Source: Mayamaea pseudoterrestris
Lineage: Eukaryota
Direction: 5' to 3'
DNA: 64,000 bases
Assembly: GCA_027923505.1 (NCBI GenBank)
Contig: BROI01000011.1
Span: forward strand, 62,001-126,000
Shown: positions 32,555 to 62,330 of the stretch, piece after piece
Layout: each line of letters opens with the position of its first letter
Position numbering within the stretch: the first letter of the stretch is position 1
Program-made: the position numbers and the translations under genes
The notes under the pieces: generated by a model
The model's database searches: none
Told to the model about the DNA's origin: nothing
What the model saw: the letters and a program-made list of their open reading frames with translations, nothing else

Positions 32555-35500
32555 TTAAAGAAAGAGTCTTGCCTCATTGCCGGGATCCTGGAGGTCTGCA
32601 AACTCTTTCACTAGTTCAGCAACCGCCTCCTCTCCCCTGGCTTCCCACTCAGCTCTATTACGAACGGCATAGTTCAAGCACTCATCACTGTTGACGCCAA
32701 AGACCTTGCAGTCCTTTAACTTCTTGGCCAAAGGAATGATGTAGGAATCAAAAAAGCCCAATTCGCCCTTGTACCAAAACGACGCCGGGTCAGCTGCCAT
32801 TTTACCGGAGCGGTAGGCCAAGGTCAGCTCTTTAAAGAGGAGACGGTTCCATTTGCGGTAAATGTGCCAGTGCTGCATGGTATGAGACACGTCCGAGGCT
32901 TGAATGATATGCTCCAAGACGATGGTTGCCCGCAAAATGTTCTTGTCCACATTTGGGGAAACCTCGGCGGAGAAAGCCTTTTCCCAACGGTTCTTCCTCA
33001 AGGCATTGAGCTCCTTGTCAAAAATATCCGTCGCCATGACGGCATTTACCATAACTTGACGGAAACGAAGGAACTCTTCCTTGCTGGCAAAAAGGGTTTG
33101 CCTTAAGCCAGCGAACTGCTCGGACATCAACAGAGTCCAGGCAATTTCCAAGGAGTTCTGCTCGGCTAGACTCTGGTGCTTGAAGTGCTCGGCAAGAGCA
33201 GGCTCCTCCTTCTCCAGCTGCATGTTGGAGATGCCCCGGTGGTCAACATCATGTATCAACCCGCTGAACACCAATGCAAAGTGGGTGATTGGATCCGAGT
33301 TAATACCATGGGTATAGTCATGGATGAGCGCCATGGCTGCTCCCTTGGACTTGCTGCAGGCCTTCTTCTCGTCATCATTAATCTCAAGTTCCGGTGTGGC
33401 AATGCGCTTCAAGTGCTTGGAGATGCTCATGGTGACGTGACAAGCGTGCTCAAAGTTGTGAAAGGGATTCTCGCGGTACATGGAAGCAATGATGGAGACG
33501 TATTCTCGCAGCTGACCAAAGACGACGGGGTCAATCTCGATATCATGCCAGTCGCCCTCAGTTGACTCCTTGTTGGCGTCAAAGCGAGGCAGTAAAATGG
33601 CTTCCACCACTTCGTTGATTCCAATTAAATCCTCCGGCATCTCGATACTGCCAGCCGGACGTGCCTTGGATGATAACGGATCGACTCGTTTGCCAAGTAT
33701 CTGCTTCAAGTACTCGCCAAGGAGCTCCGCCATCCAATCAACCTTGCGGTCGCGCTTGAGAATGTCTTCTGCCTCAGCACTTGCAGGGACGTCCAAGTCC
33801 ATTGCCATGTCATTGTTGCTGCTGTGGGTTCCACCACTAGAGGCAACGCTCCCCGCCTTTTGTTTGGATTGAGTGCGAAGCCAATACGTCTGAAGCACTC
33901 CCTTGCCCTTGGCATTAACAGTGTCCTCGCGCGGCGACAGCCAATGGCCTTTGCCGGCCAAAGTCAAAATATTTGCGGTCTCTTGCGACACTTGAATCTT
34001 CTCTCTTGTACCAGTCCTGTTGGAGAAAATGATTGAATGCACTGTCAGTTCTAGTCGCGCGGCAGTGAAAGCAGGTGCAAACAAGTAGCGTCTACTTACG
34101 ATTCCATGCGGGAAGCAGTATTGACAGTATCCCCAAACAACTGTTTTGAGAAAGAGCGAGTGATGTGAGTATGTCTAGTGTGTTGTCAATGTGAGCTCGA
34201 GACGAAAAAATAACACACTCACCTGGAAGCGACTTTTATCGCCTCTAAGGACACCAGCTGTCACAGGTCCTGAATGCAAACCGACTCGCATGCAAAGCTC
34301 CGCAGTGTCTGGACCGAGGGTGGTCTCAAGGCGTTGAGTCACCTCCTTCATCTTGATCATGCACTCACTGGCAAACCGGGCCATGATAACGGCATGATTC
34401 GCTTGCGGGTCTGGAAGGCCGGTCACAGCAACTACAAAGGCAGCGGAAGATGTGAGCTTCATGGAGATATTTGTATTACATCAACTCCTAGAAACGTACC
34501 GTAGCAATCGCCAATCGTTTCAACCTTGAACACCTTGCGGCTTTTAGCAATGTCATCAAAAGCGTTGTAAATGGACTCGAGTAGCTGAAACACTTGAGAT
34601 GGGTCGCGCGTCGATGACCAAGCGGTGAATCCTGCGGTAGTAAGAAGAAGATGGTATCGGTGAGCGACTGGTCAGTGGAGTAGAATACAAGATGGCAACC
34701 AACAACATACCAGAAATATCAGCAAAAAGTACGGTGCACTCGGGGAACAAGTCGGCAATTGTCTTGGTGGCTTGGTCGTCGCCACTGAGAAACTTGTTGA
34801 GGCGTTGGTTTTTGGACGCGAGCGGATCCATATCTCTCGTCTCCTGAATCAACTTGTCGGCAACGCTCTTGGGGAACAGAGATTGAACAATGGCCGTTGT
34901 TTGTTCTGCCCTTTGAAGCACCAGATTTTGTCGACGCTCGACCAGTCGATCGTAGACGATGAACATGAGAAAGGTAAAAGCGAACACCATGGCGACCGCA
35001 AAGGTGATGAGCGCCGGCAAGCTTGTGCGATAGTCGTCAAGCATCACTTGGGTCGGGTACGAGGTCATTTGGAAGGTGCATTCGCCTTGGTTTAACACGA
35101 TTCCATTTGGACTACCATCATCAACCGTCTCAACATCGGCCATGGTTGCCATGCGGGCCAAATGATTAAACTTGGGGTCGTGGTGGTCGCCCATGCCGAC
35201 TGGATCGGGTTCGTGTCCAGTAATAACAAAGGTGTAAACGTCGCCATCAGTTGCTGAGCAAGTGCTCTCCAACACCATGTGGATGCCTCGTATCTGCTCC
35301 GGCAATATATTGACAAAGTAGCTCTCCCAACGAAAAAGTGCCGTCATTAACGCCGTTGGCTTTTTGGTTGCTTCGTCAAAGGTGTCGAAGATAGGAACGT
35401 AAACCCTTTGGACGCGGAGGAGAAAGAGCGACGTTAGAAAGGGATCGTCGTGAGACCATGCACTGACAAGAAAATGATATTCTTACCGAGTCAGCGGGCT

Positions 35501-39311: not shown

Positions 39312-41140
39312 TTATCTCGACGATGCTCGCAGCGCCATGACAGATTCGGCCGTCATGCAAACAGCAGAAACGGCAATGACAATCCCAATGCTAAACGCAA
39401 TGTACGAATGTCGCTGATACCGTTGCAACAGCAAGGCGATAGCCGACTGTCCCAACAAAGCTGAAACGAAGCCAATCAACAAGCAAGCAATCGCATAGTC
39501 GTGCGAAAGTAGGCCAAACACCATGAAACTAATCGTCGCCGTGCTGCTTGTGAAAAAGATCATGCAGGCCGACGTTGCCGAGGCGACTTGCGGATGGACA
39601 CTGAGGGCGAGTAGCAAGGGACCCATGACCATTCCTCCTCCTGATAGACAAAGAGAAAGAAAAAAGGAATGAGTGAGTGAATGAGTATGAGATTGCATGC
39701 AGTTTAAATTAGCGTCGTTGTCATATCATTCTTTGGCGACTATTGAATTTGACCCGCGAAAGACGCACTGCGTTAACACTCAGTGACATACCAATGCCAA
39801 AAAGCCCTGCCACCAAGCCAGCAACAGTAGCATACAATGGGTACTTGATGGTATTGTGCGTGTCCCATGAAATGTCGGAAACAACCACTGCACCAACACC
39901 AGTGTCGAGTCGACTCAACACGACGCGACGGTTCCACAACACAAAGGCGACGATCAAGACCAAAATTCCAAAATTTGCCGTCCAAAAGCAAGTGGTTCCG
40001 CAGTGTGGCAATGGTTTGACGGATGGAAGTTCGGATGCATCGCTCACTACGTCGGGACTGGCCGACATGCCTTCGCCGAGCGAGCCCTTGGCCAGATTGA
40101 TCACCGTCACCACGGCAAAGAGAGCTGTCAGTTTCAACGCATCGACCCAAACTTGATGCGTATTTTCGGAAACGTTTGGTGTCGACTGTCGGTGCAGCTG
40201 GTTCTTGGTGCTACTTGATGCAGCAGCTGCGCTCGAGCCGGCGGCTCCGTAGCTACCACCACCGCCGCTTCCAATGCCAAGCAGTTTCTGCTGCTCCTGC
40301 ACGCGCAACGCATCCTCGGCGGCTCGCTTGGCCACCGTTTCCTTGTCGTACAGCTTCTTGGCCTTTTGCAGCGTCAGGTACGAGGTCAAGGATAGCAGCG
40401 CTAGTAGTAGAACCACCAAGACGGCTGCTGGAAGTAGCGTATTGAGCATGGCACCTACCAAGGTTCCAGCCATGGTCATTGGCTCTAATAGCAGCAACAA
40501 GTCCCAGTCAATGCATGGTCGTGATGGATGCAGCGGGTGTTTCTTGGGAGCATTGATCAGATTGTTTGCGAGACTAGCTCCGAGAACAGTCACTGCGGTT
40601 AACGGAATGGCAGCCTTGACGTTGAATCGCATCACAAGCGTATAGACGGGAAGTAGAATGCCTGTATAATGCATAAAGGAGGAGAATGAGTTGCAATGGA
40701 TTAGCAAACGTTGCGAATGAGTTCGTGCAGCTCGCTTTTTATACGTAATAATGCAGCCAAGGGACAGCCTCATCGCCTAGGATCTTCCTTCCAAATCTTG
40801 TACTTGATTATATTCTCTCCCGCGCATGTCTCCTCGATTCATTCCACTCCATACCATCATTCGTTACGCTCTACGCACCTCCTCCTCCAATCCCTCCAGC
40901 CGCCGCCACGGCCAAGCCAACAATGGCAACGCCAAACCCGAAATACTCGTGCTGATCCAATGGAAACAGTGGAGGCAGCTTGGCATTGTGCGCATCAAAA
41001 ATGTTTCGCTCCGAGAATGCAGGTGCTTCGTTGCGAATTGGATGCGCCTGATGAGAAACAATCAAGCCGGAGGCAATGAGCGTCACGAGCGCCACGCCCG
41101 AGATCCACGCGAGTCGCTCGCTGGAGAGCAACGGAGGCAT
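39312..41140 (-). CDS. TauE/SafE-family (sulfite exporter-like) membrane protein, 3 exons
   Basis: Repeated AAGGIGGGGILLP and GLFGIGGGMVMGP motifs, RPCIDWDL..LEPMTMAG and HPQVASATSACMIFFTS; introns 40662-40878 and 39641-39791. Confidence 0.88.
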
Positions 41141-41536: not shown

Positions 41537-42450
41537 TTAAAACTGCGAGGTAACCGTATCAACATGGTCCGCCACCATGCCAAGGTTGACAAGAATCTCC
41601 TTTTCGTTCACTAATTCTTGCGCAACAATGCCAGCAGCGCCAAGCATGGCCAAGCGTCCATTCTGGAGCTCCTTGGTTTGCATTTCAGCAAATTCGGCGG
41701 GGTCGGTGGGCTTGAGTCCAAACGGGTCAAAGCCAACATCACCGGGGTAGTAGTCGGGGTTGAGGAACTTGCCCGAGTCCATGGCGTTGCTGGGAGCTCT
41801 CCATCCGCGGAGCGCGCGGTTCAATTCAAGCGTTCCAATGGTAATGGCGAGAATTTCAAAGAAGAATGGCGCGGCGGTGCGAACGACATCGAGGTGGCGG
41901 ATGGAGGGACCAATGTCGCGGGCGGCGCTTCCAAAGAGTGGATGAAACTTGAGTGGCTGCTCCGTCACAAGCATGCCAACGGTGGCAAGCATGGCGACAC
42001 GTCCATGCTGGAGCTCGGCCTCGCGGTACTCCTTCATCTTTTCGAGGCTGGCCGATTGGGCAAATCCAAGGGGATCAAAACCTTCCGGAATGGGGTCAAT
42101 GGCGCCTGGAAGACCATAGGCAAACGCATTGTCATCGGGTGACCATCCGTTCATGGACTTGGCAGAGTCGAGCTGCAAGTTGGTCTGGCCCTGCATGTTT
42201 TTGGTGCAGCGAAAAGACGTGGTGAGTACTGGTGCAAAACGAAACATTCCCTCCATCGTGGGTCTAGTGAACAGCTCGCAGTCATGAACAGTCGAAAGAT
42301 CCTTGTAGATTCCATGGATCATTTGTTTCATTTATCATTTTCACAATCGGCAGTCGCTGCGCCGCGACACGCAACAGATTGACTTACATTCTTGGACGGA
42401 GCAAAGGCAGCCGCAGAGGCAAGGAGGGAGGCGGCAAGAGCGAGCTTCAT
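41537..42450 (-). CDS. LHCX: Fucoxanthin-chlorophyll binding protein, Lhcx (LI818/LHCSR-like) subfamily
   Basis: Exon 1 MKLALAASLLASAAAFAPSKN (ASAFAP presequence), then FDPLGF, REAELQHGRVAMLA, GPSIRHL, YPGDVGFDPFGLKP and QTKELQNGRLAML. Intron about 42191-42387. Confidence 0.9.
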
Positions 42451-44793: not shown

Positions 44794-46695
44794 ATGCATT
44801 TTGAGGCACTGCATCAAGCAAGTATTAATATGCACGCAATCATTCAGTTGCTCCTGCGCATCATGCCATCATCCGTTGCTACCGGTAGTGCTCGTCCCGT
44901 GAGTGGGCCGCTGAGTATCAATACTCGTAGTGCCAGTCGTCGTCGTCGCTACCTTGGAACGAGTCAGCAGCCCTTGCGATGGACGCGACAAAACTATATT
45001 CTCATGGGGACTCTCAGTTTGATGGGGCTATTTGTATTTGGAAGTTTTGCAGTGGATATTGTGGGTTTTTATATCGAAAGTTATCGGATTGGAAACTCTC
45101 ATGTGGAGCGTGACAATCAACGTACACAATACTTGAAAAAGGTACAAGAAGAAAGGGAGCAAAGCGAAGCGGCGAATGCACGTTTCCAAGCCTACGATCC
45201 TTGCTCGTTTCGAAACTATTCCTTGCATCGTTACTACGATTGGGTGCCAAACTACACGATTCTTAATCCAGTCAGCAAATGGTGGCTACCAAGACATGCA
45301 GAGTTTCTAATGGTGACTGACTACTTGTTTCGAAAGTGGCCGAAAATGTTACGAGATACGAGTCCTCCGCGCAAGCTATGTATTGATCAGTCCGCATGGC
45401 GTCATGAACGTAAATATACACGTACAGCAGCAGCTGGTTCTCGAGTGGAGTTTTTCACTCCAGTTTCGGATGGAACCAATCCGAGTATCATTTCGCGGCG
45501 CCGGCTGGAGCAATACGCTTTCAATCATACAGCGTTTCTGTGGGCCAAGTTTCCAAGTGCAGCCTACCTTGCGACGGTGACGCTACCGGTGAATGGACAA
45601 TGTATTTGGCCCGCCGCGCCGATGAACAATGAGACAATGGCTGTCAACCAACGGCGCGATTTGTTTCGAACAATATTGTTGGTGTTGAATGATTCGTTTC
45701 AGCGCTTGGAGGAATGGACCATTGCTTTAGTACCAGACACAACATGGGGACGCCTACCGACGGGCCACCGTATTCAGGAAACGGAAAATAATTGCATCGA
45801 AGCTTGTCAGTACACTGGCGTTTCTTATTGGCATGGGACCACGCCGTTGATGGAACATGTCCAACTGTTCATTCATAATGAGCGATTGTGGATCACGTAC
45901 CGTAACTCGTCCATGTTCAATCCCGACGCGCAAGCGATCAATCCCTTGCACTGGCGTGGAGAAGTCGGAGTGGAAATCAAGGCGTCGGAGACGGCTACAT
46001 TTTGTTGTGGGCGAAACATGGCGTTGCTGCAGCACTTTAAACGTGCATCATCAGAGCCGCCGCTGTCGTCGTCGCCGCCACTTTGGGCCTTGACTTCGGT
46101 TGATCCAGTCACTGTGGAACAAGTGGATACGACGCCACTTTCAAATCGGACCAGAAGCAAGTGGCAACGACGACGACGATTGCAACAGAAAGCCTCTATT
46201 GAGTTTGCACGTTCCAATAAATCACCCATGCGCGGCACCACAGGCTTCATGGTTCACTTGCCGGACCGACGCGAATACTTGGGCATTGGCCACATGCATA
46301 GACCATTTTCCGAAAACGAAGGACCGAATCAATACGCATGCGGCGGACATCATTTCACGCATGCCTTTTTTACCATTTCGGATGAGCCGCCGTATAAATT
46401 GACGAGTCTGAGTGTCGAGTTTATGCTGCCAGCCGCAGTGGACAACAACAAAACGTTTAACGCGGAAGTGATCCAATATTGGAGCGGTCTGGAAGTGGTT
46501 GAAGCTGATGAGAAGGAACGTATGGTTGTAATTGCATATGGCTTGAACGCATGCGAGTCGGCTATTACGACGTTGCCGTGGTCAAAGGTGGAATCTGTGC
46601 TGCATCCAGTCAACGACAAAGAGGATGGAAGTGCGGACGCCAAGCAAATAGTTGATTTCATGGCGCAATTTGCATTTCCACACGGTACTGGTTGA
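44794..46695 (+). CDS. Type II membrane beta-propeller protein, paralog B (start may be the ATG at 44863)
   Basis: Collinear with paralog A (KLCIDQS, DGTNPSI, FCCGRNMAL, VDPVTVE, GFMVHLPDR, IAYGLN). Confidence 0.7.
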   Translation: MHFEALHQASINMHAIIQLLLRIMPSSVATGSARPVSGPLSINTRSASRRRRYLGTSQQPLRWTRQNYILMGTLSLMGLFVFGSFAVDIVGFYIESYRIGNSHVERDNQRTQYLKKVQEEREQSEAANARFQAYDPCSFRNYSLHRYYDWVPNYTILNPVSKWWLPRHAEFLMVTDYLFRKWPKMLRDTSPPRKLCIDQSAWRHERKYTRTAAAGSRVEFFTPVSDGTNPSIISRRRLEQYAFNHTAFLWAKFPSAAYLATVTLPVNGQCIWPAAPMNNETMAVNQRRDLFRTILLVLNDSFQRLEEWTIALVPDTTWGRLPTGHRIQETENNCIEACQYTGVSYWHGTTPLMEHVQLFIHNERLWITYRNSSMFNPDAQAINPLHWRGEVGVEIKASETATFCCGRNMALLQHFKRASSEPPLSSSPPLWALTSVDPVTVEQVDTTPLSNRTRSKWQRRRRLQQKASIEFARSNKSPMRGTTGFMVHLPDRREYLGIGHMHRPFSENEGPNQYACGGHHFTHAFFTISDEPPYKLTSLSVEFMLPAAVDNNKTFNAEVIQYWSGLEVVEADEKERMVVIAYGLNACESAITTLPWSKVESVLHPVNDKEDGSADAKQIVDFMAQFAFPHGTG

Positions 46696-46759
46696 TAAAA
46701 GTTTTGATAAGCATTTATAAATAGTGGAGGCAGCAACTGCTGCCGATCACCGTCTTACT

Positions 46760-49700
46760 TTACACAATGTCAACGTATGAACCCGTTTCTGTAGCTCGGC
46801 TCTCGCGCGATGCAATGCTGCTCGTATCGTAAGAATACACACGACTTGCCGGAGCGCCTTGCCAAATCGTATCCGCTTCTATAACCTCTCCTGTCATGGC
46901 CAGACTCTTTTCCAGGAGCATGGCTCCCGATTCGACAGTCACACCTTGCTGTACCCGAGAGCCAGTCCGCAACGTGACATTGTTCTCCAGCTTGATAGGC
47001 ACCAGCTCAAAGTTACCCCGCGTGTTCAAGTGACAGACAACCGACGAGCAGTCTACGACGCAGCGGTCGCCCATAACGACCATATCAATTTCGGGTGGAA
47101 ATGGATCCGCTCCTGCTGGATAGAGACAACAATCATCTCCGAGTTTGCCTCCCATCATGCGAAAAAGTGTGGCAAGATACGGTGTGCCGGCAATAAAGTC
47201 GAGAAAGTTGACCTTGCCACTTTGGCGGACCTTTGATACAATCTGGTAGCACTCCCAATTTTGGGCGTATGGGTCTTCATGGTAATTGTATCGACCTTCC
47301 TTTCGCGTGCCCATGAATGCCCACTTGGCGCCAATCTCCACCAGAAGCCACATTGCGACGCGGATGCAATGCGTGAAGCAAAAGGCAATGAGCATGACAG
47401 TATATACCTCTGAAAAGGTTACGTAGTCGCGCTGGTAAACGCGACCTTGTATAGCTCCGTACCAATAAAAGGCACTCAAGTGTAGCGCTCCGAGCATTGA
47501 AAAGCAATCTAGCGCAGCGATGATGCTCTTGGTAACAAGAGTGAACGAGATAATGAGTGGCAGTGGCCAAACAAAGTAGTTGGCTTCTCTCTGATAGAAG
47601 GCCTTTCCAAAGGGACGTAAGGTCGAGTCGTCGCCAGTCATTTGCAGCATCTCAACTTTGACATCAGCAGCAAGGACAGGTCCGTCATAGTCTTCAGCGC
47701 CCCTCTCAAGCATTACAGGTTCGCCGCTCTTGGCTCCAAACGAAACACTCGCTTCGGGTAGATACCTCCCTGCCGGACATAGTGTATTAGATCCAAGCAC
47801 GGCGTTTTTGCCGATTATTGAACCAGGGAGGACAACAGTATTATCCGACACGTTAGCTCCCGCACAAAAGACGATTTTCTCCGCTGAGTCAGTCGTTGTT
47901 GCGAGTATTGTCGACCGGGAACCAAATACAACATCGTCACCAATCTCCAAAAGGTCGAATTCGCCAGAGAATATTGGCTGATGGCCTGGCCAAAAGACTC
48001 GCTTTCCGACTTTGGCGCCAAGCGCGCGGTAAAGACAGCTGACAAGCTCATAATGCCGGCCGACAAGCTCCGTGTAATCCTGCATTCGTTCTCTTGTGAA
48101 CAGATCTTGAGCAAGTTTGTGGCGAACAAGTTGCCATTGGGAACATGTATCACGTGGACCAGGTTGGAATTTGCCAATGACTAGCCGTTTGACCAAGACT
48201 GCGGCTAACATGTACATGAACGGTGCAGCAATGGCACGAGCCACTCGAATTCCAATGTAAAATGGAATGCGACGAGGATCGCAGAGCCACGCCATCAAGT
48301 CGTTAATGCTGTCAAAAGCCTTCCCTTGACGCCACGGCATAGATACCATCCAATACAGAACGTAGAGAGCCGGAAGATGGCTAATTGTATCAACCATGAA
48401 CATGATTGGCCTACAGATGAAGGTCTGCGATATCCAAGTTGGCTCTGGTAGCGCTTGTCGATTGTACTTTGAATGTTTGACGTCATGGCCCGGCTCGATC
48501 AGGGATGCATTAACTTCGTACGAACTCGTCGCTGGACCCAAGTGATGGAAATCTGGAACGGCAGTGTATGGACAAACGACCGACTTTACTCCAACGCTTG
48601 CAAAGTCGCCAACTGCGACTGGCCCAAGCATCATGCAACCATTGTCAACTCCAAAACCTCGAATGGTTGAGTACTCAACCGCCGCTCCTTCTCCAATCGT
48701 CACTAGATCGTACTCGGCAATATCCGACTCCAAACTTATTCGTGCATTCTGTCCGATTGTGGCGCCGCACAACTTGTAGTAAAAGCAAAGCAAGCTTTCC
48801 GTCGAGCCAAAAATGCCGCGTCCAATCAACTTGCGCATCACATCTACAAACCACCATCGTAGGTAAGATTGGCCCCAGATCGGGTAACGGCCAGCTTGAT
48901 ACTTTCCAATTATGGTCCATTTTAATGCCACAAAGACCAGAGGCGTAATTGTGATCCAAAGAAAATGATATGTGATCAAGGTCGCAACAAAAAGAATGAG
49001 ACTGTGAACGCTCGGCACCTTGTACAAAACAAATACCAGCGACCGAAAGAATAGGAAGAATCGAGTCAGCTGCCACACTGGATAGACAACTAATAGAGGA
49101 ATCAGTTGAAACAATGAAGCGAATAGACCAGAAGAATTTTCGAGGCGTGTATGATCAAATGGCTTGCCATGCGGTCGAAACTTTTCGGAGAATATCGTCG
49201 AGACTGCCATAGAAGCAGTGTAGCCGTCGGATGCGTCAGCACGATCTGATCCGTCCACTGACTTTCCTTCTTTTCGCTCGCGAACAATCTTGGCAATCGC
49301 GATGCAGTTTGTATGGTGGAAGACTTCAGAGCCTCCGAACGACACGTTGTGAATCTTACGGACCTTGCTTGCAAGCTGTGATGCCAGCATGGACGACCCT
49401 CCGACGTTGAAAAAATTGGTTGTCCTGTACAGCACAGGGAAACAGTGAGATCACTAGAGCCATCTTGTAGCTTCCTCAACAATTTTACGGCAACAACTTA
49501 CGGTGCGGGCAAACAATCAAGGTCTAATAATTCCTGCATCAGCTCTTGCAACGAGCTCACAAGCGGATCAGTCGGTCCAACACCAAACAATTTCTCTTCT
49601 TGTTCAATCGACCCAACTGCGTCGCAAGATTGCGGCGGTGGTAGTTCCTGATCCGGTTGGCGCAGGGTACAAACATGACTTGGAACGGCGAACGCATCCA

Positions 49701-52005
49701 ATCTCTCCTTAGCCACCCTGACTACGAGGAGTCGTTCAATATTGTACACGTGACACACAATCGCGCCAATCTTGTTTGGATGCGGCACCACGATTAGATC
49801 TTTTTGTGGCCCATCAACGAGCGCTTCTCGCAAGATATCCTGGACTCGAGAACATTGAACGCTTATTCGCTGACATGGAATTGCGACAGAAACTGGTGTA
49901 CCCTGCGGAGGACATTCGGCTTGAAACGTTCGCTCAATCGGGTACATTGTGTCATTAAGCTCGGGTAGTCGTAGACGCTGCGCTAGCTTGACGCGAAGAA
50001 CCTTGTTCGTGTGCGATTTTGGCAGTGTCGACATGTACACGACACACTGCGGCCACTTTGGCGCTGTCAGCCTTCCTTCACCGAGGAAAGCATGCAATGT
50101 TGTCAGATCAATCATGGGCATGTTCGGGACAGGAATCAAAACTATTCCAACTACTTCTTGAAGTATCGAATGCGGCGTCGAAAAGGCAATACAGTTCTGC
50201 ACGAGTGGGTGTTCATTGACGGCTTCTTCTACCTCCAATGGCGAAATAATTTCGCCGCCTCGGTTAATGACTTCCTTCGATCGCCCCGTGATGTAAAGAT
50301 ATCCGTCAGAGTCTTGGTATCCAATATCGCCAGTGTTAAACCAGCCGCCAGGCAGAAATGTTTGTTGTTGCTGCTGTTCCCCTGCCATGAGACCATATCC
50401 GCGAAAGCAGGGTGCACCTCGGACACAAATCGCCCCTTCCTTGCCCGGTGACATGGCTTTCATACCATCCACGTCATAGATGGCAACTTCTGGACCCACC
50501 GCGACGCCACTAGTTCCAGGCTTTTCTAGCTGATACGTCGCTGGCGGACTCGTAATCGGCATACACTCGGTCATTCCGTAACTCGGCAAAACGTTCGCCT
50601 GAAAGGCTTGTCGCAACTCGCGCGCCAAGCTTGGCAGTAACCCTCCTGCGGCGTTTGCAATCATGCGCAACTTGGGGTGAGTTCCCGACGGAATGCGTCC
50701 ACATCCCTTGCTGTCGATCAAGCCTTCCGCCTGACCAGTCTGCAGAATAATTTGATGCATCGTTGGCGCCGCATAGTACCAGGTAAATCGTTCTTCCTTT
50801 AGCAAGCTCCAAAAGACGGCAGGATCAAATGATGGGCAACAAATAACGCAGCCTCCACTGAGTATAGGCGAAAAGACTTGTCGAATAATGCCTCCGACAT
50901 GAAATAACGGCATGAGGTTCAAGTTGATATCATCCGACGCGAGTTGCCAGCTAATGGCGATGCAGGATGTTGCAACCAAAACATCAGCTAGTAAGTGTGG
51001 AACAAGCTTTTTGCTTCCCGTAGTTCCGCTCGTGAACAAGACAAGAATTTCGTCATTGTGGCCATTGGGTTGCATGCTGCTGCTGGCATGTTCGTCATTG
51101 TTCTCATTGTAATTGTACGCACGCTGCTGATACTGCACTGCCGGATCATTTCCGAAGCTTGCCTTGATGGCAGACTCTTCCTCAGCGTTTCGTCCAGCGG
51201 ATCGATCTGCTTCATTCGTCAAAGTAGCGTGTGGGGTGGACGCATTTTGTGCGGGTCCATTGTTGGAGTCACCCATCATGCCAAGGATACGTCGCGGACT
51301 GGATGGAACGACGCTAGGGTATTTCGCAATCGACTGCTGCTGCTGCGGTTGCTGCAACACGAACAAGCCGGCGTGTTTCGCGTCCTCCTGCAAACCGCAG
51401 TAGGCAATTCCCAGCTTCTCCGCCACTTGCTGAATTCCATTGCTCTTGCCGCTACTACATCCTTGTTGACCAATCACCAAGTCCACCGACGCCAAAACCA
51501 AGTCGCTCTCCAGCTCCGCCACGGCTCCAAACGCGTTCAACGGCACGCACGAGCACCACGTCGTCAAGCACAAAATCGCCAGTGCCAGCGTCGGCCCATT
51601 CTCCAAGCACAAGGCAACCCGATGCCCACGTCGAATACCCAGTTTCTGTAGCGCCAAACCAGTCTGCTCCATGCATGTTCGTATTTGCTCAATGTCGAGG
51701 GGTAATCGACCATCAATGCTTGCCAGCGCCGCTGGAAGAGGTCCGCTGCTAGAGTTGCTACTTGTCGATGCCTTGGGCAAGGCTTCCAATAGATTGCGAA
51801 CCTGCGGCAGTACGGCTTGCGCGACATGAGTTCCGATAATGCTTCCATTTGGTTGCAGCAAATGCTTGGCGAGTCCGACCAGCGGTGGGAGTGGCGTGTT
51901 GGTATGCTTGCTTGCTTGACTCAATCGAGCGTGGTAGGAACTCGCAGCTGCCGCGTCCAAGACGGAGCTTGATCGAGAGAGCGAGGCCATGATGGAGGAT
52001 GACAT
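46760..52005 (-). CDS. Membrane-bound NRPS-like synthetase: adenylation domain, thiolation domain, TM segments and hexapeptide-repeat domains (Pls/PosA/polymalate-synthetase-like); intron 49425-49501
   Basis: A-domain FTSGTTGSKK, SYGMTE, FNTGDIG, GRSKEVINRGGE and LPKSHTNK; carrier motif NFFNVGGSSML. Three TM plus LbH units begin KWTIIGKYQAGRYP, KRLVIGKFQPG and KWAFMGTRKEGRY. The two ORFs splice in frame (CC|G). Confidence 0.9.
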
Positions 52006-52602
52006 TGATAATGATACAGTCAAGTGTTTTGATGTGATGTTTCGTCCGCAATCTTTCGGATTAATCTCTCGCAACGTTCTTGGTTTTGCAATCCGTGCTA
52101 CAGTGGCTGAATCGTGTCGCAAGAACCAACACTTTCGAGAGCGACCGACCGGTAACACTCTCTCTGTTCGTCTCGGAGTCTTATCAACGTGTTTTATGTA
52201 TGTGCTCGACTCTCACTTCCACGAGAGAATGGCAGCAAGAGAGGTGCGCAAGTAGGAATTGGATCACAAGATTGGATCAAACCGGAGTCGTCTGGATCGC
52301 CTGCGAGATAACTGAATAACTGAATAACTGATAAATAACAGGCAGCTTGCTCTTGAACGTCCAGTAGAGCCAAGCTGCTAGTCTTGGTCTTGCTATGGAG
52401 CGGAATCTGTGTGATGGAGCGAGGGGCGGAGCAGGATGGATGCCGACGTCGCCAAGAGAATCAAGCGGCATTGAAAATTACGTCTACTTAACAAGATACT
52501 TTCTGAACGGAGCATTTGAAATTCAAGCCTTCGCCAACGTGTACCGTTACGACAGCCGACTAACGCGACCTCACATTCTTTGAAAGGCTTCATTCGTTCA
52601 CC

Positions 52603-54159
52603 ATGGCAATCCTCTCGCAACGACAGCAATTTTCATTCACATTAGTATGGATATGCTGCATGTACTTTATGAATATTCGACATGCTTGTGCCCTTTCATC
52701 CAGAGCAGCGCATCCTAAACAGCCTCCCCGCAGTCACCAAACATCACCACCATTGTCACGCTCATCATCGCAACGACAAAAGGTCGCCATTATTGGGGGC
52801 GGCATTGCCGGATTATCCTGCGCACAGCAACTAGTCAATCATTCAAAATATCAAGTGACTGTCTTTGACACCGGAAGACTTCGGCCGGGAGGACGCTGCG
52901 CCAGTCGATTACCAAATGATGTAGCATCAAAGAAGGATGCAGCGTCGCCGACATTTCCCATACTTTCGCAGTACTGTATTGACCACGCGGCGCAAATAAA
53001 TGACGTTGAAACAGAGAAGAAGAGCAATGAGCATTTATATGGAGCATTTCAAAAACAAGTGTGCCAATGGAAGGAGCGAGGAATTTTAAAGGAGTTTCCA
53101 AAAAACTCGCTGGTCCAAATTCAGGTCGACAAGCATGGAGTTGCAACCTCAATCGAGCCCGTAGCTTCATCATCATCGTCGTCGTCGTACCTGCACGCTC
53201 CGCAAGGCATGGGGTCAATTCCAATTTCCATTCTCAACGCTATAGAAAGTGTTTCTGGAAACGATGATGGCAAGTTTGTCTATCGACAAGACGTTTGGGT
53301 CAGTCCATCCAACGGTTTGCGCTACTTGAATCAAACGCGCGACTGGCAAATTTCATCCAATGGCAAGTCATTGGGTCGCTTCGATCAAGTCATTATTGCA
53401 CACAACGGCAAGTGCGCCGACCGGTTAACAAGTGCCACGCCCGCTAAGCTCATCAACAACCTGCTCAAGGTCAAGTTCGCTCCAACGACAACAAAAAAGT
53501 CACAACGCATGACGCTCAATAGCATTTACAGTTTAAGCTTTGCACTACCGCGCGGATCAAATCTTTCGAAGCGATTGGCGAGCGAAAGTGGAAGTCCGTT
53601 CATGTGCGGCATGATTCAAAAGCATCCTAGCTTGTCCTTTCTCACCTGCCAAACTAACAAGCTTCAGCAACCGGCTGCAGATTGCGAGCATGAAATCTGG
53701 ACGATTTTAAGTACAGCAAACTTTGCATCGCAGCACAAGGCGCCGCAAGAGTTTTTGCCCCAAGATGTTATCGCAAACGTATCCAAACTGTTGATCAACT
53801 CGCTCGAAGAGTGTTTGGGCATGTCGCAACAATCTATACATGCAAGCATACTCGAGCATCGCCTCCAACTTTGGGGTGCAGCTCTTCCACTCAATGTGTA
53901 TCAAAGCGGTGAAGACAAGAGGGATGGCTTTCTTTGGGATGGCAAGTTTCAAATTGGTGTCTGTGGTGACTGGCTAATGGAGCCCAGCATTCGCGGAGCA
54001 TGGACGAGTGGACTGCAACTGGGACGATTGCTTACAAACGATGACCGACGCGACAATGCCCAAAGTAAGCAGTTCAAAGGTGCGTTTTATAGGAGCGATG
54101 CCGCGGCGGAAGCGGGGATTGGAGCATTTGATTTGCCGATTGCGGTGGCGGAAAGGTAG
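52603..54159 (+). CDS. Renalase-like FAD/NAD(P)-dependent oxidoreductase
   Basis: KVAIIGGGIAGLSCA, GGRCASR, DHAAQ, QLWGAALP and GVCGDWL..SIRGAWTSG; N-terminal hydrophobic presequence. Confidence 0.88.
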   Translation: MAILSQRQQFSFTLVWICCMYFMNIRHACALSSRAAHPKQPPRSHQTSPPLSRSSSQRQKVAIIGGGIAGLSCAQQLVNHSKYQVTVFDTGRLRPGGRCASRLPNDVASKKDAASPTFPILSQYCIDHAAQINDVETEKKSNEHLYGAFQKQVCQWKERGILKEFPKNSLVQIQVDKHGVATSIEPVASSSSSSSYLHAPQGMGSIPISILNAIESVSGNDDGKFVYRQDVWVSPSNGLRYLNQTRDWQISSNGKSLGRFDQVIIAHNGKCADRLTSATPAKLINNLLKVKFAPTTTKKSQRMTLNSIYSLSFALPRGSNLSKRLASESGSPFMCGMIQKHPSLSFLTCQTNKLQQPAADCEHEIWTILSTANFASQHKAPQEFLPQDVIANVSKLLINSLEECLGMSQQSIHASILEHRLQLWGAALPLNVYQSGEDKRDGFLWDGKFQIGVCGDWLMEPSIRGAWTSGLQLGRLLTNDDRRDNAQSKQFKGAFYRSDAAAEAGIGAFDLPIAVAER

Positions 54160-54867: not shown

Positions 54868-56841
54868 TCAATTAAGCTTAATGCACTCGCGAGCTGACAG
54901 GGTCAAGATCTTGGCCTTGTTGCCTATCCGTTCTGCTACTTGCGGCAAGGTTTTTACTCTCACCAAGCATTTTCCGGTGCATCCTGGTAAATCGTCAAGA
55001 GTAAGCTGATTGTCGGACCAAACAGAGATTCTAGCCTCCCAAAGGGAATCGAGCTGAACAGTTCTTTCGCTACCAGTAACCTCGTCCAAGACAGTTACTT
55101 CCATCATACCCATTCCTGCCCAGTAGGATCGGAGAATGGCCAGGTACACGACATAGCAAGGACGCTCCGGCAAGTCAACATCAAACTCAAGGACTTCGCC
55201 CCCATCCACATTCGATGCAATCCAACCCATTTTGGTGGCAAACTTGCCACCGTCGTACGTAAATTGAAAGCCTGGCGTATTGTTGGCGGCTTTCAGAACA
55301 TGGCAGAACGCATCCTCGCATTCCGCGTCCTCGACCAAGGCAAAGTTGCTACGTGTGAGCAACGCATTGGGCGTACCAAGCCAGCCCACCAGTGGCAGAT
55401 TTTGTGGAGCGACAGCTGAGGATATTGTTGATTGCTGCGTATCCGACAGCTGCTGTCGCTGACAGTCATCCTTGACTGCCGTCGCAAGGGCTTGGACGAT
55501 GAAATCTTTGGCAATGGCGTGACCTCTGGCACTAGGGTGAACAGCGTCCACCGAAAATAGTTCAAGAAAGCAATATTCTCGTCCCGGCGGTGGCAAGGCA
55601 TTCATATCGCAGTTGTGCCCCGATTCTTCCATGATGTCGCATACCGTCAAACACTTTCTGGCGCTATATGTCCGGTTGTAGTAGTTGCGAAACTGTTCAA
55701 TCATTGTCTCCGGACGACACTCGTGACAACCATAAGGAAACGGCTGGATACTTTCACCAATGGGCACTGTATATAGCTCTGTTGCGTTCAATTTATGGTA
55801 CATCAAATCAAAGATTTCCGGAAGCATTGCATCCGCGTACGAAATCATGGGCACCTGATAGTGCTGAGCCACACCCATGTGCAGCATTTGGGCCGTCTTG
55901 CGCTGCAAGATTGACGATCGAAACTCGACAAACATGATGGATGCTTCAGGAAAGGATGACAGTAGCTTGTAGACAACAACTTCGGCGCAAAGTGCCAAGT
56001 CCTCAAAGTTTTGGAAAAAGACGTCCATTTGCGAAACAGCGTAGTGAACATGATCCTGTCCTTGGTAGTCATTCACGGCATACTCCAAAGTCACCACGTC
56101 GGGTACTTTCATATTCTGCGTTCGATTCAAAAAGTCTAGCATGGTGGTCATGCGCTTGGCAAGGTGGCAAATATCAGCGCCATGCTGGGCCATGTTGTGA
56201 ACGCGGTGACGCTCGTCTTGGTTTGGCATTGGATATTCCTCATTGAGCCAATGCTCCAGCAGTCCCGTATATCCTTCGGAACCAATATTCATATTTAACT
56301 CTACTCCATGTGATTTGGTAATGGACCCGCCAAAGGAAACCACGTGTATGGGTTTTTTACGCTGCCGGAGCTTTTGTGCGACTTGCGCAAGTCGATACGG
56401 GTGACCCCAATTGGCTCTCGAGCGTCGCATCGAGTCTTGCGTAAGACCAGGTGTCTGACGACTGGTGGCTTGTACAAAGGCAGACTCGCAAACGTCGGCT
56501 TGGACTAGAGGAGTAGTTGGAGCAGCAGGAGGAGGAGTGGATGGAATTTCGTTTGCTTTGCTTGCTATTGCTGCTTCGGCATGTTGACTGACATTTTTTA
56601 ATTGGCTTTTGAGCCTTTGTATTTCCTTTAGCAGTAATTTGACTTGTTCATCGTCTTGTTTGTTGCTTTCTGAAGCATTTACGTGATTTATAACCGTTCC
56701 AATGGCAGGCTGATGCTGCAGCATGCCGGAGAATTGCATGCTACTCGAGCTGTTGTATATTGAGTATAACAACGATGCTGCCACTACAGCTAGTAGAAAG
56801 AAAATGGCTCGGGATCCTGAACATTTGTTCTTCGTCTTCAT
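54868..56841 (-). CDS. Type II membrane SGNH/GDSL-hydrolase-like protein, paralog A
   Basis: N-terminal TM and coiled coil; FGGSIT (block I), EYAVND (block III) and DAVHPS (block V). Confidence 0.82.
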   Translation of the reverse strand: MKTKNKCSGSRAIFFLLAVVAASLLYSIYNSSSSMQFSGMLQHQPAIGTVINHVNASESNKQDDEQVKLLLKEIQRLKSQLKNVSQHAEAAIASKANEIPSTPPPAAPTTPLVQADVCESAFVQATSRQTPGLTQDSMRRSRANWGHPYRLAQVAQKLRQRKKPIHVVSFGGSITKSHGVELNMNIGSEGYTGLLEHWLNEEYPMPNQDERHRVHNMAQHGADICHLAKRMTTMLDFLNRTQNMKVPDVVTLEYAVNDYQGQDHVHYAVSQMDVFFQNFEDLALCAEVVVYKLLSSFPEASIMFVEFRSSILQRKTAQMLHMGVAQHYQVPMISYADAMLPEIFDLMYHKLNATELYTVPIGESIQPFPYGCHECRPETMIEQFRNYYNRTYSARKCLTVCDIMEESGHNCDMNALPPPGREYCFLELFSVDAVHPSARGHAIAKDFIVQALATAVKDDCQRQQLSDTQQSTISSAVAPQNLPLVGWLGTPNALLTRSNFALVEDAECEDAFCHVLKAANNTPGFQFTYDGGKFATKMGWIASNVDGGEVLEFDVDLPERPCYVVYLAILRSYWAGMGMMEVTVLDEVTGSERTVQLDSLWEARISVWSDNQLTLDDLPGCTGKCLVRVKTLPQVAERIGNKAKILTLSARECIKLN

Positions 56842-56940
56842 CTTGCAGAAAAATCAGTTCGTCTGCAGTCTGCAGTCTCTTCTAGCGTGACTGCAGCACC
56901 GCAGAATTTCAAATAATGCCTGCTAGACGACGCTTTCGTG

Positions 56941-58389: not shown

Positions 58390-61300
58390 ATGCCTCCAAT
58401 CGACGATCCATCCGCGCTGCAGCTCGATCCGGAGCCCCCATCTGTGAGAGCTTCTGCAGCAACAACAACATCTCCTACAACAGCATTACCAGGCCGCGTC
58501 GTTCGCTTGAACTTTTACTGCATTGCCGAACTACCGATTGGAAGTACGCTCCGCGTGACGGGTAGTACGCTCTGGGCGCCGGGAACGCTGGCGCATGATC
58601 CGTCCGATGCGGCTGCCGTGTACGCGCACGAGCAAGCCCAGGGGTTTACCACCAATACGCCGTCTCCGGATGATACAGTCATGGTCATGGATGAATCGGA
58701 ACATGCAAACGTATTGACTGCGTGTGCTGGAAGTGGAGCAGGCGGAGGAAGACCATTGTATGCGAGTAGCATTGAAATGGTAACGACGCCGGAAACGTAT
58801 CCAGTGTGGAAGACGCGTCGGCCCGTCATTTTGGTGGTTCACGCGCATGACAACCATAACAAGGGCGGAAATACGAGTAGTAGTAACCTTTCCGCGCCGC
58901 CTCGCCGCCGCATTCAGCATCACTACTACCGCTATCTAGTGGTCTGTCCAGGAGCAGCTGCCGAAAATGTATTGGAGCAGCCAGCGGATTTATTAATGGA
59001 GGATGTTAGTTTGGGCAATTTGATTAGCACCTCCAATGAGGAGTTTGGATCGACACCAGTCATGCAGTGGGAGGATCCATTTTCAAGCATTCTCTCCAGT
59101 ACAAGCTTGGCGGATGCTAGGGCCAATTCCATTGCGGAAGCTAGCGCTGTTAGCATGGCGAGTAGCTTATTTGGAACGACGTCGAGTAATGCCAACGGTG
59201 CGACGGCCAAGGATTATAGAAACTTGCCGTATCGAACATTGGATATTGATCTTGCGACGAATCAGCCTCTTTGGGACGATGGAACTGGAAGTGGAGACGA
59301 GGAAAATGGAGTGCATATGGATCATTGGAACGTTGCGGATGATGTCACCTTTCGTCCATATCGGATTCGGGAAGTGGTATGTGCATGCGCGAGTAATATA
59401 CAGCTGCAAAGGATTGTTTGTAAACATTCGCAAGACTCACTTGGTAAAATTTTCAATCATTGTTTCCTGTTCTTCAACCATTCTTCAATTTCTCTCAGAT
59501 TCACCAAGAGAACCGCCGCAAACTTCTTACACGCAGCGTTTCCAGCGTCGTTGGAGACGATACCGACATGGCGACGGATCGACTCGAGGATGAGGATCGC
59601 ATTCTTTCGTCGTCGAATATCATGGCGAGTGGCGACGCGACTCCAGTCTTTTCAGCAAGTAGTCGCATCTTCTTTGTTTGCTACCACTTGCCCGTTGTCG
59701 TTGCGCAAGATCCAATCACCAAGGATTGGAGAGCTTCATGGAGCGAAAGTATTTTGGCAAGAACGGAAGGTTCGCGCATATTGGCCATGTATGAGAGCTA
59801 CTGGGTTGGAACAGTGACCACCTATCCGCCATTGGAAACGGCAGAGGACAAGGATGCTGTTAGCAAGCTGCTGAAGGAAATGAATTGTGTTCCAATATTT
59901 TTGGATACGGCCATTCGTCAAGCGCACTATTATGGATTCTGCAAGCAAGTCTTGTGGCCAGCTTTCCATAATATCGACTTGTTGGACTTGTCAACGAGTG
60001 GATGGTTGTCGGACCCAAACGGCAATGGTCACGATGCAGATTCAAGTACCTCTGGAACGGCCCCTGCGAGCAGCGACTGGGACCAGTCGCGCCTCGAACA
60101 CTGGTGGCTGGCCTACAATGCCACGAATGCGGAGTTTTGTCGCGTTTTGGCCAATTACTTTCGACCGGGCGACATTTTGTGGATTCATGATTACCACTTG
60201 AGCATTTTGCCCAAGATGCTGCATTCGATTGAAACGGAAACGTATGGCAAGTGCGTCACGCGCAAGGTTTTCTTTCTGCATATTCCATTTCCGACGTCGC
60301 AAATCTTTCGCGAGTTGGAGTGCGGCGAAAGTTTGCTCCAGGGCATGTTGCATGCGGACGTGGTCGGCTTTCACGCATTTGACCACGCTCGTCACTTTTT
60401 GAACGCGGCCAAGCGCATTTTGGGTCTCAATTATGAAAGCATTGCTGGTGGGTTGATTGGAGTCAACTTCCAGGGCAAGACAGTCTTAGTATCCATGAGC
60501 AATGTTTCGATTGAGCCTCGCATGGTAGATGTCGCCCTGATGCTGCCGACGGTTGCGGAAGGGAAGAAGGCTTCAAAGAAAAAGCATGACGGCCGCATCA
60601 TCATTGGGGGCGTAGACATTGGCCAGCGCTTGTCGGGAGTGGCTCTCAAGTTTCTAGCCTATGAACGCTTACTGCAGGATTATCCAGTCTGGCAGAGTAA
60701 GGTCGTTATGGTGCAGCGTGTTTTGCTTCCTGGATCCCGCAAGGTGGACGAAAAGGCGACGATTGCTGAGCTCCGAGCGATTGTCAAGCGCTTGACAGAT
60801 AAGTTTGGGTCTAAGGTCATTGACTACGAAGAATCGGCCGGGTCGTCTTTGCCGTTGGATCAGCGGCTGGCGTTGTGGAAATCGAGCGACATCCTCATGT
60901 GCACACCGATTCGTGAAGGCCTCAATCATTGGCCGTTGGAATTCATTTACGCGCACAAGGCTCCGGAGAGTCCAGGGGTTGTGATCATGTCCGAATTTTC
61001 GGCGGTGAGCTCGATTTTGAATGGGGCGCTCCGTGTCAATCCCTTTGACATTCAAATGAGTATTATTACAATCGACAAGGCACTCAGCATGGAGCTCCAG
61101 GAACGTGAAGGTCGTCGCTTCCGCGACATTGACTTTGTCCAGGGCAGTCCATCGGATCGCTGGGTCAAGAATGTTTTACGCGATCTGCGCGATGCGACCT
61201 GTCGCCAGTCGGCGGCAAACCAGAGCGAGACGAACTCGCAGTCTCAAACACCTTATGGGACACCAAACCCCAAGTCACAGGCATTAATCGACAGTACCGC

Positions 61301-62330
61301 GGCATTTCTGAGCCGAGAAAGTAATGCGGCGTTTGTTCACTTGTCCATGAGCACATTGCAGCGAGCGTACAATGCCACCAAGCGTCGAGTCATTTTCACG
61401 GACTTTAATGGAACCATTGTTATGAAAGAACCGCCAGGCAAGTACTTGAAGCGAGAAATTCTTGGTTCGAGTGGAAACAAGCCGCCGCCAGCGGTCATTG
61501 AAGCTCTTCAGCAACTTGTGGAGGATCCTCGAAACACTGTCTACGTAGTGTCTGGCGACTCATCGGAAAATGTGCTTAGTGCGCTAGGCCACATCCCCAA
61601 GCTCGGTTTGGCTGTCAGCAATGGAGGTAGATACTCGCCGCCCATTTCTCCAGAACAGCCTCAGCGCCGCTGGCTAACGTTTGACTTGGGTGTGGACTGG
61701 GATGCTGTCAAGCGCGTTGCGCTACCAATCTTATCCAAGTACACGGCTCGCTCCAATGGATCATTCGTCAAGCTCACGTCATTTTCGATTGGCTGGTCGT
61801 ACTACTCGTGCGACCCGGAGTGGGGGTCGTTGCAGTCGGCTCATTTGGTACTCGAGCTTGAGAATGAGCTTCGAGCCTTTGACGTTCGGTTTGTGACGCT
61901 CAAGGGCATTGTGGAAATTGTCCCTCGAAAGCTGAACAAGGGTTTGATTGTCAAGCGAGTTTTGCGCGAAGTAGCCGCGCAGCATCCGGAAGGAGTTGAC
62001 TTTATTTTGTGCATGGGAGATGACATTTCGGACGAGAAGATGTTCACGTCAGTCTTTTCGTACATTGCCGAGCTGGGCGACAGTTTCCGAACTGCTGGAC
62101 CTCCGGTTGTGCGAGACGATGGCACATTTGAACCTCCCGTTCCTGACAATTCCGTCGTTCCAGATCCCTTGTTTGCGTACACGGTTGCCGTTGGCAAGAA
62201 GTCGAGCCATGCATCGACCTATGTCAATAGTGCCACGAACGTTGCGAATGCTCTCGTGTTGCTGGCAAGTGGACAAGCGCCAGATGAGGGAATTTGGGAT
62301 CATCATACCACGGAACACTTGTTTGGTTGA
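58390..62330 (+). CDS. TPS: Trehalose-6-phosphate synthase/phosphatase family protein (GT20 + HAD) with CBM20-like N-terminus; intron 59377-59498
   Basis: HYYGFCKQVLWPAFH, WIHDYHL, FFLHIPFP, SEFSAVS..LNGALRVNP, and HAD-type LCMGDDISDEKMF; the exons join in frame. Confidence 0.92.

Follow-up and report, generated by a model that had tools for sequence, protein, structure and literature searches.

Does a freshwater pennate diatom carry a synthetase for polymalate (poly(malic acid), PMA), or for a polyester close to it? This question is raised by a gene of Mayamaea pseudoterrestris that lies on the minus strand, at 52005..46760, of a 64,000-nucleotide stretch of contig BROI01000011.1 (assembly GCA_027923505.1, positions 62,001 to 126,000 of the forward strand; hereafter the window). 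A prediction made earlier from the sequence alone (hereafter the original prediction) had proposed for it the layout of membrane-bound homopolymer synthetases combined with an adenylation (A) domain of the carboxylic-acid type. In the available text of two reviews, polymalate is known from Physarum and a few fungi, and its synthetase was named in 2020, in Aureobasidium (PMC11286673, PMC9210645). Our comparisons support the assignment of the diatom gene to the family of this PMA synthetase, as a membrane-anchored, single-module polyester synthetase that resembles nonribosomal peptide synthetases, and we consider it reasonably probable that the diatom enzyme makes poly(malate) or a very similar polyester. 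This kind of enzyme is already known from Aureobasidium; what is new is its presence, its conservation and its likely activity in diatoms.

Gene structure and transcripts

Two minus-strand open frames, 49498..52212 and 46760..49450, lie head to tail at this locus, and the gene consists of two exons separated by a single GT..AG intron of 77 nt. From the first ATG of the upstream frame, at 52005, the spliced coding sequence runs over 5169 nt and encodes 1722 amino acids, letter for letter the database protein P0003 (MPSEU_000582000), which is labelled ‘hypothetical protein’. The single spliced gene that had been proposed at 46760..52005 is therefore exact in its coordinates.

Four public sequencing runs from one study (X1-X4) contain 79-89% of the gene’s sampled words. 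When their contigs were aligned over 46400..52500, those of three of the four runs (X1, X3, and X4) skipped exactly the 77 nt of the intron (CT..AC on the plus strand), one X3 contig carrying 962 nt on one side of it and 297 nt on the other, and a contig of X2 read through the intron unspliced. Since the library kind of these runs is off record, the spliced contigs are taken as evidence for the exon joint only and not for the level of expression. Three relatives (P0059, P0067, and P0087) are MMETSP transcripts marked ‘complete’, in which the A domain and the thiolation (T, carrier) domain share one open reading frame (ORF) and the whole C-terminal domain follows in the same frame (97-99% of the query). 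Spliced contigs and full-length transcripts of relatives together counter the possibility, raised with the original prediction, that the two frames are separate transcripts.

Dozens of single-base differences separate the contigs of the four runs from the window sequence within 46573..51382. They often form clusters with a spacing of three bases (e.g., 47735-47816 and 48065-48077), a pattern compatible with synonymous variation between alleles or strains.

Domain order and the C-terminal units

One polypeptide carries, in this order, an A domain, a carrier domain and three homologous units that each consist of a helix pair and a left-handed beta-helix. Pfam, TIGR02353, hhalign and AlphaFold2 all bear out this arrangement, including the carrier serine in GGSS that had been pointed out before. 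The Pfam AMP-binding match covers residues 107-537 (2.7e-48) and AMP-binding_C residues 591-668. For the carrier domain, the PP-binding score of exon 2 alone is 18.9 bits versus a Pfam cut-off of 20.8, PF00550 is recorded for the whole protein P0003, and the family profile matches solved PCP domains (1dny, 1.1e-14). The phosphopantetheine site is Ser846 (codon 49393..49391) in the motif FFNVGGSSM. This serine is invariant in all 24 rows of the family alignment, as are 71 C-terminal positions; the rows span four eukaryotic groups.

The C-terminal 790 residues match NCBIfam TIGR02353, the Pls/PosA terminal domain, in three stretches (E 2.2e-61). The three units are also homologous to each other, with hhalign probabilities of 99.6 and 99.7% for unit 1 against units 2 and 3, and 99.1% for the remaining pair. 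An AlphaFold2 model of exon 2 only, made with a 32-row alignment (pLDDT 85.7, pTM 0.86), starts with a four-helix carrier domain (helices 11-56) and a disordered linker, after which a block made up of two long helices, some short ones and then a beta-helix occurs three times. This agrees with the proposed Pls/PosA layout, since the terminal domain of those enzymes, in the available text of its description, is ~730 residues long and contains six membrane helices, arranged as three pairs, and three soluble segments of weak mutual similarity (C1-C3), which were modelled as left-handed beta-helices packed against each other (PMC10522769). Like the diatom protein, the synthetases of epsilon-poly-L-lysine (Pls) and delta-poly-L-ornithine (PosA) thus consist of a single A-T module followed by three transmembrane (TM) pairs and three homologous soluble segments. 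In contrast to them, the diatom protein has an A domain of the acyl-CoA-ligase type that lacks the amino-acid signature, an ester rather than an isopeptide bond is expected in its product, and its TIGR02353 score stays below the curated cut-off.

Within the soluble segments, unit 2 carries a Pfam Hexapep match (exon-2 residues 522-548) and the motif GDDVVFGSR. Two histidines stand out by their conservation. His1292 in C2 (G-x-H-Y-E) is invariant in the 24 family rows, 23 of which come from named eukaryotes, and is replaced by Asn in the bacterial relatives. His1633 in C3, in the motif H-(L/I)-N-(T/S)-x-G-x-F, is kept in 30 of 30 rows, six divergent representatives included, and in all eight bacterial rows; because every relative examined retains it, it is a candidate general base. 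The nearest solved folds of the soluble units, according to Foldseek, are hexapeptide O-acetyltransferases (3ect, 3hjj, and 3ftt) and gamma carbonic anhydrases. No solved Pls-like structure was retrieved by sequence, family profile or fold; the matches were confined to PCP domains, hexapeptide acyltransferases and gamma carbonic anhydrases. The O-acetyltransferases (of maltose and galactoside, and VCA0836; Foldseek E 7e-5 to 1e-3) likewise make esters on hydroxyl acceptors. However, they are soluble homotrimers that use acetyl-CoA and share only 11-21% sequence identity with the diatom units, which are three non-identical, apparently carrier-fed repeats in one chain with membrane hairpins.

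Adenylation domain and acyl pocket

The core motifs of the A domain are intact: TSGTTGxKK (325-333), YGMTE (476-480), GRSKExINRGGE (574-585) and Lys668. As had been noticed, the A4 stretch, LMPLFHVGGI at 364-373, contains no Asp, including at the position that we take to pair with the amino-binding Asp of amino-acid A domains. The best solved relatives are all oxalyl-CoA synthetases, i.e., Lathyrus 6qjz (1.7e-57), Arabidopsis AAE3 5ie0 (4.2e-57) and yeast Pcs60 8aff (4.7e-47), and the best NCBIfam matches are FadD7 and long-chain and malonyl-CoA ligases. These matches support the view that the diatom A domain is of the carboxylic-acid type.

The likeness to AAE3/Pcs60 that had been proposed on this basis holds for the fold and the core motifs, and the segment FTWYYAAPTMHQ of the diatom protein pairs with ATWYTAVPTIHQ of AtAAE3 in the alignment; a WY.A.PT.HQ stretch is also shared. 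It does not extend to the substrate contacts. In the available text of the Lathyrus paper, the oxalate pocket of AtAAE3 is formed by Val215-His216, Cys288-Ser289, Ala313-Met314, His319 and Lys500, and Ser289 and His319 are oxalate contacts conserved only in oxalyl-CoA synthetases (PMC8905533). In the HMMER alignment the eight corresponding diatom residues are V370, G371, A452, A453, G477, M478, P483 and K668. Five of the eight are thus replaced (His216 by Gly371, Cys288 and Ser289 by Ala, Ala313 by Gly, and His319 by Pro483); the replaced positions include Ser289 and His319, two of three residues that contact oxalate, and the catalytic lysine is retained as Lys668. The loss of Ser289 and His319 makes oxalate an unlikely substrate of the diatom A domain, and since two bulky residues have given way to Gly and Pro, the pocket should be larger. 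A further difference is that the AAE3/Pcs60 enzymes are soluble proteins of ~515-545 amino acids that transfer the acyl group to CoA, whereas the diatom protein has 1722 amino acids and is expected to load the acyl group on its fused carrier.

The same eight pocket residues occur in 16 of the 24 family rows, namely all nine diatom rows, Physarum, Aureobasidium and five other fungi (Hortaea, Acrodontium, Diaporthe, and two basidiomycetes); in the remaining rows position 370 is Ile, 453 is Gly or 478 is Thr. One turn past the A4 stretch, Arg375 is invariant in the family and corresponds to Ala in AAE3, which suggests that it may bind the second carboxylate of the substrate. The N-terminal part of the diatom A domain also contains a low-complexity insert with Q runs and N/S-rich segments (residues ~205-310, window 51080..51390, minus strand) that has no counterpart in AAE3; the HMMER alignment to AAE3 is interrupted from residue 171 to residue 313. 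Residues 542-547 form another Q run, EQQQQQ.

Distribution and phylogeny of the family

A word-indexed search for longer proteins returned 319 matches. Among the best 120 of these, 103 are 43-100% identical to the query, and all 12 rows with an organism name are diatoms (Mayamaea twice, Seminavis, Epithemia, Nitzschia, Pseudo-nitzschia, Cylindrotheca, Stephanodiscus, and a metagenome-assembled genome (MAG) of the Bacillariaceae); rows at 30-35% identity, among the same 120, comprise Mucoromycota, chytrids, basidiomycetes and a transcript of Physarum polycephalum. An exhaustive HMMER search yielded 2256 representatives at E <= 1e-3. Of the 52 with a matched C-terminal domain and at least 1200 amino acids, 48 have an A domain that scores at least 200 bits to that of the diatom, so that the combination of such an A domain with such a terminal domain is the rule. 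By these comparisons ~100 diatom-like sequences belong to one family with proteins of fungi, of protists and of a few bacteria. Names given to its members include ‘hypothetical protein’ or ‘AMP-binding enzyme’ in diatoms and ‘Oxalate--CoA ligase’ or ‘peroxisomal-coenzyme A synthetase’ in fungi; on proteins of 1600-1800 amino acids of this kind, ‘Oxalate--CoA ligase’ and ‘hypothetical protein’ are misleading names.

The PMA synthetase of Aureobasidium melanogenum was reportedly described by Wang et al. 2020, a paper known to us through reviews. As defined in the available text of those reviews, a PMA synthetase consists of an A-like domain, a T domain and a C-like terminal domain with six membrane helices (PMC11286673, PMC9210645), and both the A-T-C organization and a knockout phenotype are described (PMC11286673, PMC9210645, PMC11905612). 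The published enzyme is QHD40385.1 of A. melanogenum, encoded by a gene of 5049 bp, to which an A. pullulans gene is reported to be 96.5% similar (PMC9210645/PMC11286673, PMC11905612; available text).

Starting from a Hortaea homologue, we found an Aureobasidium cluster, P0363 (1690 amino acids), with 126 members including A. melanogenum. The diatom protein and the A. pullulans protein of this cluster are 35% identical over 1472 colinear columns (809 bits), which supports the likeness to the fungal polymalate synthetase that had been proposed. Both possess an AAE3-like A domain, a T domain and six membrane helices with three beta-helix units, at lengths of ~1682-1690 and 1722 amino acids, and, judged by P0363, the eight pocket residues and the invariant Ser, His and Arg are the same. 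The diatom protein differs in having an insert of ~105 residues, rich in Q, in the A domain and a longer N-terminus, and it belongs to another kingdom and to a separate, long-stemmed clade. A Physarum polycephalum transcript, P0108 (1728 amino acids), has the same A-T-three-unit layout, pocket residues identical to those of the diatom, and 35% identity to it over 1628 colinear columns (901 bits). According to the available text of a 2022 review the Physarum polymalate synthetase was still unidentified (PMC9210645), and by its sequence P0108 is an obvious candidate.

Phylogenetic trees were calculated with FastTree (43 rows) and in two quick IQ-TREE runs (29 and 33 rows). In all three the diatoms form a single clade (support 100) on a long stem (0.7-0.8 changes per column in two of the trees), placed inside a group with Physarum, the diplonemid Artemidia and other sequences; this group adjoins the chytrids and Mucoromycota, then the basidiomycetes, and then the ascomycetes including Aureobasidium. 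All three trees thus group the diatom protein with the Aureobasidium protein to the exclusion of the divergent relatives, and the proteins of the two classical polymalate producers, Aureobasidium and Physarum, flank the diatom clade. As the root is set by two divergent representatives (P0256 and P0223), the branching order is tentative and only the flanking position is used here. Mayamaea itself possesses a second paralogue outside the window, P0085 (MPSEU_000980400, 1701 amino acids), which is intact, is 52% identical in the C-terminal part, has the pocket, carrier serine and C3 histidine of P0003, and takes a basal position in the diatom clade.

When bacterial genomes were scanned once with the family alignment, ten loci (L001-L010) emerged, in Novosphingobium, Myxococcota, Planctomycetota, Kitasatospora and a Dormiibacterota MAG. 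Eight of them encode full-length proteins (1476-1591 amino acids from stop to stop) with an A domain of the same type (372-419 bits). The eight bacterial rows have the pocket of the diatom except for V, A or S at position 370 (V in the three Novosphingobium rows), and Arg375, the carrier serine and the histidine of C3 are likewise present in them. In the 33-row IQ-TREE tree the bacterial sequences group together in a single clade next to Physarum and Artemidia, which points to horizontal spread.

Two groups of relatives depart from this pattern. P0256, P0223 and P0204 (1256-1702 amino acids) match the terminal domain (TIGR02353, 167-191 bits), and their N-terminal part scores only 55-125 bits to the A domain and matches no acyl-CoA-ligase model at 1e-10; they may represent a separate branch with another type of substrate. 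In the basidiomycete homologues P0121 and P0122, precomputed Pfam annotation adds RING-finger families (PF00097, PF13923, PF13920, and others) to the A-T-hexapeptide set, which suggests that some mushroom-forming fungi have a zinc-finger domain fused to the protein.

Proposed mechanism and alternative explanations

In the mechanism that we propose, the AAE3-like A domain would adenylate a small hydroxy-dicarboxylic acid, most likely L-malate, and the phosphopantetheine arm at Ser846 would take up the acyl group as a thioester. Three helix hairpins would hold the three tandem beta-helix domains at the membrane, and together these domains are predicted to make up a single pseudo-trimeric body resembling an acyltransferase. 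This body would transfer the acyl group to a hydroxyl, either of free malate or of a growing, non-tethered chain, with His1633 of C3 as the likely general base. The six-helix bundle would anchor the enzyme and may move the polyanion across the membrane. We infer these steps from motif conservation and by analogy with the non-tethered chain of the Pls/PosA enzymes, and the same conditional reading applies to the substrate, the ester chemistry, export, the membrane concerned and the parts that His1633 and Arg375 would play. In the original Pls work the growing chain is said to be non-tethered. For polymalate the reviews, in their available text, give a comparable route of malyl-AMP, a malyl-S-carrier and ester formation by the C-like domain (PMC11286673, PMC9210645).

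The alternative that survives best is that the same machinery uses another monomer (glycolate, glycerate, tartronate, tartrate, citramalate, etc.) or, instead of building a homopolymer, transfers malyl groups to another acceptor at the cell surface (e.g., a polysaccharide, a lipid, or a polyamine). We consider it unlikely, yet worth keeping in view. The substrate is deduced from eight pocket positions only, the diatom clade sits on its long stem, and the beta-helix units resemble O-acetyltransferases that acylate sugars. On the other hand, the pocket, Arg375 and the flanking stretches (MPLFHVGGI, NAAGGL, and SYGMTECMPI) are nearly constant from diatoms to ascomycetes and bacteria, which argues for one substrate throughout the family. 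In the available text of the respective papers, the sole member with genetic evidence is tied to polymalate (PMC11286673, PMC9210645) and homopolymer synthetases are the only enzymes known to have a three-unit terminal domain (PMC10522769).

Several further points weigh against polymalate as the product. The pocket positions were defined on a C2 ligand, and a C4 acid would contact further residues; an identity of 35% leaves room for a different monomer; and many of the fungi that carry homologues are not known as polymalate producers. The TIGR02353 score of the diatom protein (208.1 bits) lies below the curated cut-off (423.1), as do those of the Aureobasidium (199 bits) and Physarum (220 bits) proteins. 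The evidence for Aureobasidium, as given in the available text of the reviews, is genetic and not an assay of the A domain (PMC11286673, PMC9210645). P0363 is taken as the orthologue of QHD40385.1 from its genus, length (1690 versus ~1682 amino acids) and architecture, because QHD40385.1 is not among the 15 listed of the 126 cluster members. On the transcript side, runs X1-X4 have no recorded library kind. Finally, full-text searches, whose scope excluded subscription journals and closed supplements, found no paper linking polymalate to diatoms; nine papers contain both words, but judged by their titles none of them deals with this subject.

Much less probable is that the gene encodes a CoA ligase for oxalate or another acid with an incidental membrane anchor, or that it is a decaying relic devoid of polymerase activity. 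Oxalyl-CoA synthetases are indeed the closest solved relatives of the A domain, and the fungal homologues bear the corresponding names. Nevertheless, a plain oxalate ligase was rejected, as the oxalate contacts Ser289 and His319 are replaced and a carrier and a membrane domain are fused to the A domain, and against a relic stand the invariance of Ser846 and the 71 C-terminal positions, the 1722 open codons, the spliced contigs and the intact second paralogue that Mayamaea has retained. That the enzyme is of the Pls/PosA type and makes a cationic homopoly(amino acid), e.g., epsilon-poly-L-lysine, is hardly credible, and this reading was likewise rejected, for although the layout of A, T and three pairs of TM helices each with a C segment is shared and TIGR02353 is matched, the A domain belongs by family and structure with acyl- and oxalyl-CoA ligases and not with amino-acid A domains, its A4 stretch has no Asp, the TIGR02353 score is below the cut-off and the protein groups with the Aureobasidium polymalate-synthetase cluster.

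Implications for diatoms and other potential producers

The eight papers retrieved under the names of the enzyme all deal with Aureobasidium or with biomaterials and nanomedicine and none with diatoms, and the main text of the Mayamaea genome paper mentions neither the gene nor malate. A broader claim is that beta-poly(malate), or a polyanionic polyester close to it, is made and released by diatoms as a group and by the scattered protists and bacteria in which the gene occurs; we regard this as possible, with the balance just on the doubtful side. If true, the polymalate pathway would be old and widespread instead of confined to Aureobasidium and Physarum, and the same family would also provide the Physarum polymalate synthetase. 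The polymer would then be an overlooked part of diatom exudates or of the handling of metals, calcium or silica. A biodegradable, strongly chelating polyester would join algal exudates and dissolved organic carbon, with a possible bearing on frustule or metal biology. The family described here also includes candidates, identified by sequence, for the Physarum enzyme and for producers among the bacteria.

Coordinates and neighbouring genes

Table 1. Features of the synthetase gene, of its surroundings in the window and of one bacterial relative (positions refer to the window unless a locus is given).
Feature	Position	Strand	Basis or remarks
Exon 1: N-terminal extension, A domain, first part of T domain	49502..52005	-	ATG 52005..52003; codons 1-834 and first two bases of codon 835
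Intron, 77 nt, GTAAGT...CAG, phase 2, within carrier-domain coding region	49425..49501	-	Sequence and spliced contigs
Exon 2: remaining T domain, three membrane/beta-helix units	46760..49424	-	Last base of codon 835, codons 836-1722, stop 46762..46760
Adenylation (ANL) domain, residues 107-668	50002..51687	-	Pfam, structure matches
Thiolation (carrier, PCP-type) domain, residues ~812-891, split by intron	49256..49572	-	PP-binding, family profile
Unit 1: TM1, TM2 (exon-2 residues 108-135, 142-171), C1 strands ~234-300	48488..49126	-	Hydropathy, AlphaFold2, hhalign
Unit 2: TM3, TM4 (exon-2 residues 330-361, 383-416), C2 ~478-573	47699..48436	-	Pfam, hhalign, AlphaFold2
Unit 3: TM5, TM6 (exon-2 residues 621-655, 670-704), C3 ~782-864	46826..47563	-	hhalign, AlphaFold2
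FAD/NAD-binding oxidoreductase ORF, divergent neighbour of synthetase	52564..54159	+	
GDSL-type esterase/acylhydrolase ORF, two genes upstream of synthetase	54868..56853	-	
Trehalose-phosphate synthase/phosphatase (TPS/TPP) fusion ORF	59448..62330	+	Pfam
Chlorophyll a/b-binding (FCP-type) protein ORF	41537..42331	-	Pfam
TauE/SafE-like exporter ORF	39721..40776	-	Pfam
Cyclic-nucleotide phosphodiesterase ORF	32555..34174	-	Pfam
Cyclic-nucleotide phosphodiesterase ORF	26506..28065	-	Pfam
Example of a bacterial synthetase ORF	L003:1745-6502		

No evident partner gene of the synthetase was found among the neighbours scanned in the window, i.e., the FAD/NAD oxidoreductase, the GDSL esterase, the TauE-like exporter, the FCP, an ankyrin protein, the TPS/TPP fusion and the two phosphodiesterases. 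Seven of the bacterial loci were scanned and their neighbourhoods contained no malate-pathway gene. In the two Novosphingobium loci among these seven a phosphopantetheinyl transferase gene directly follows the homologue (L001:6366-7298 and L003:6519-7304) and is itself followed by a ferritin-like gene (L001 only) and a TonB-dependent receptor gene. In one Planctomycetota locus a secretin-like gene comes after the homologue (L009:6682-9270).

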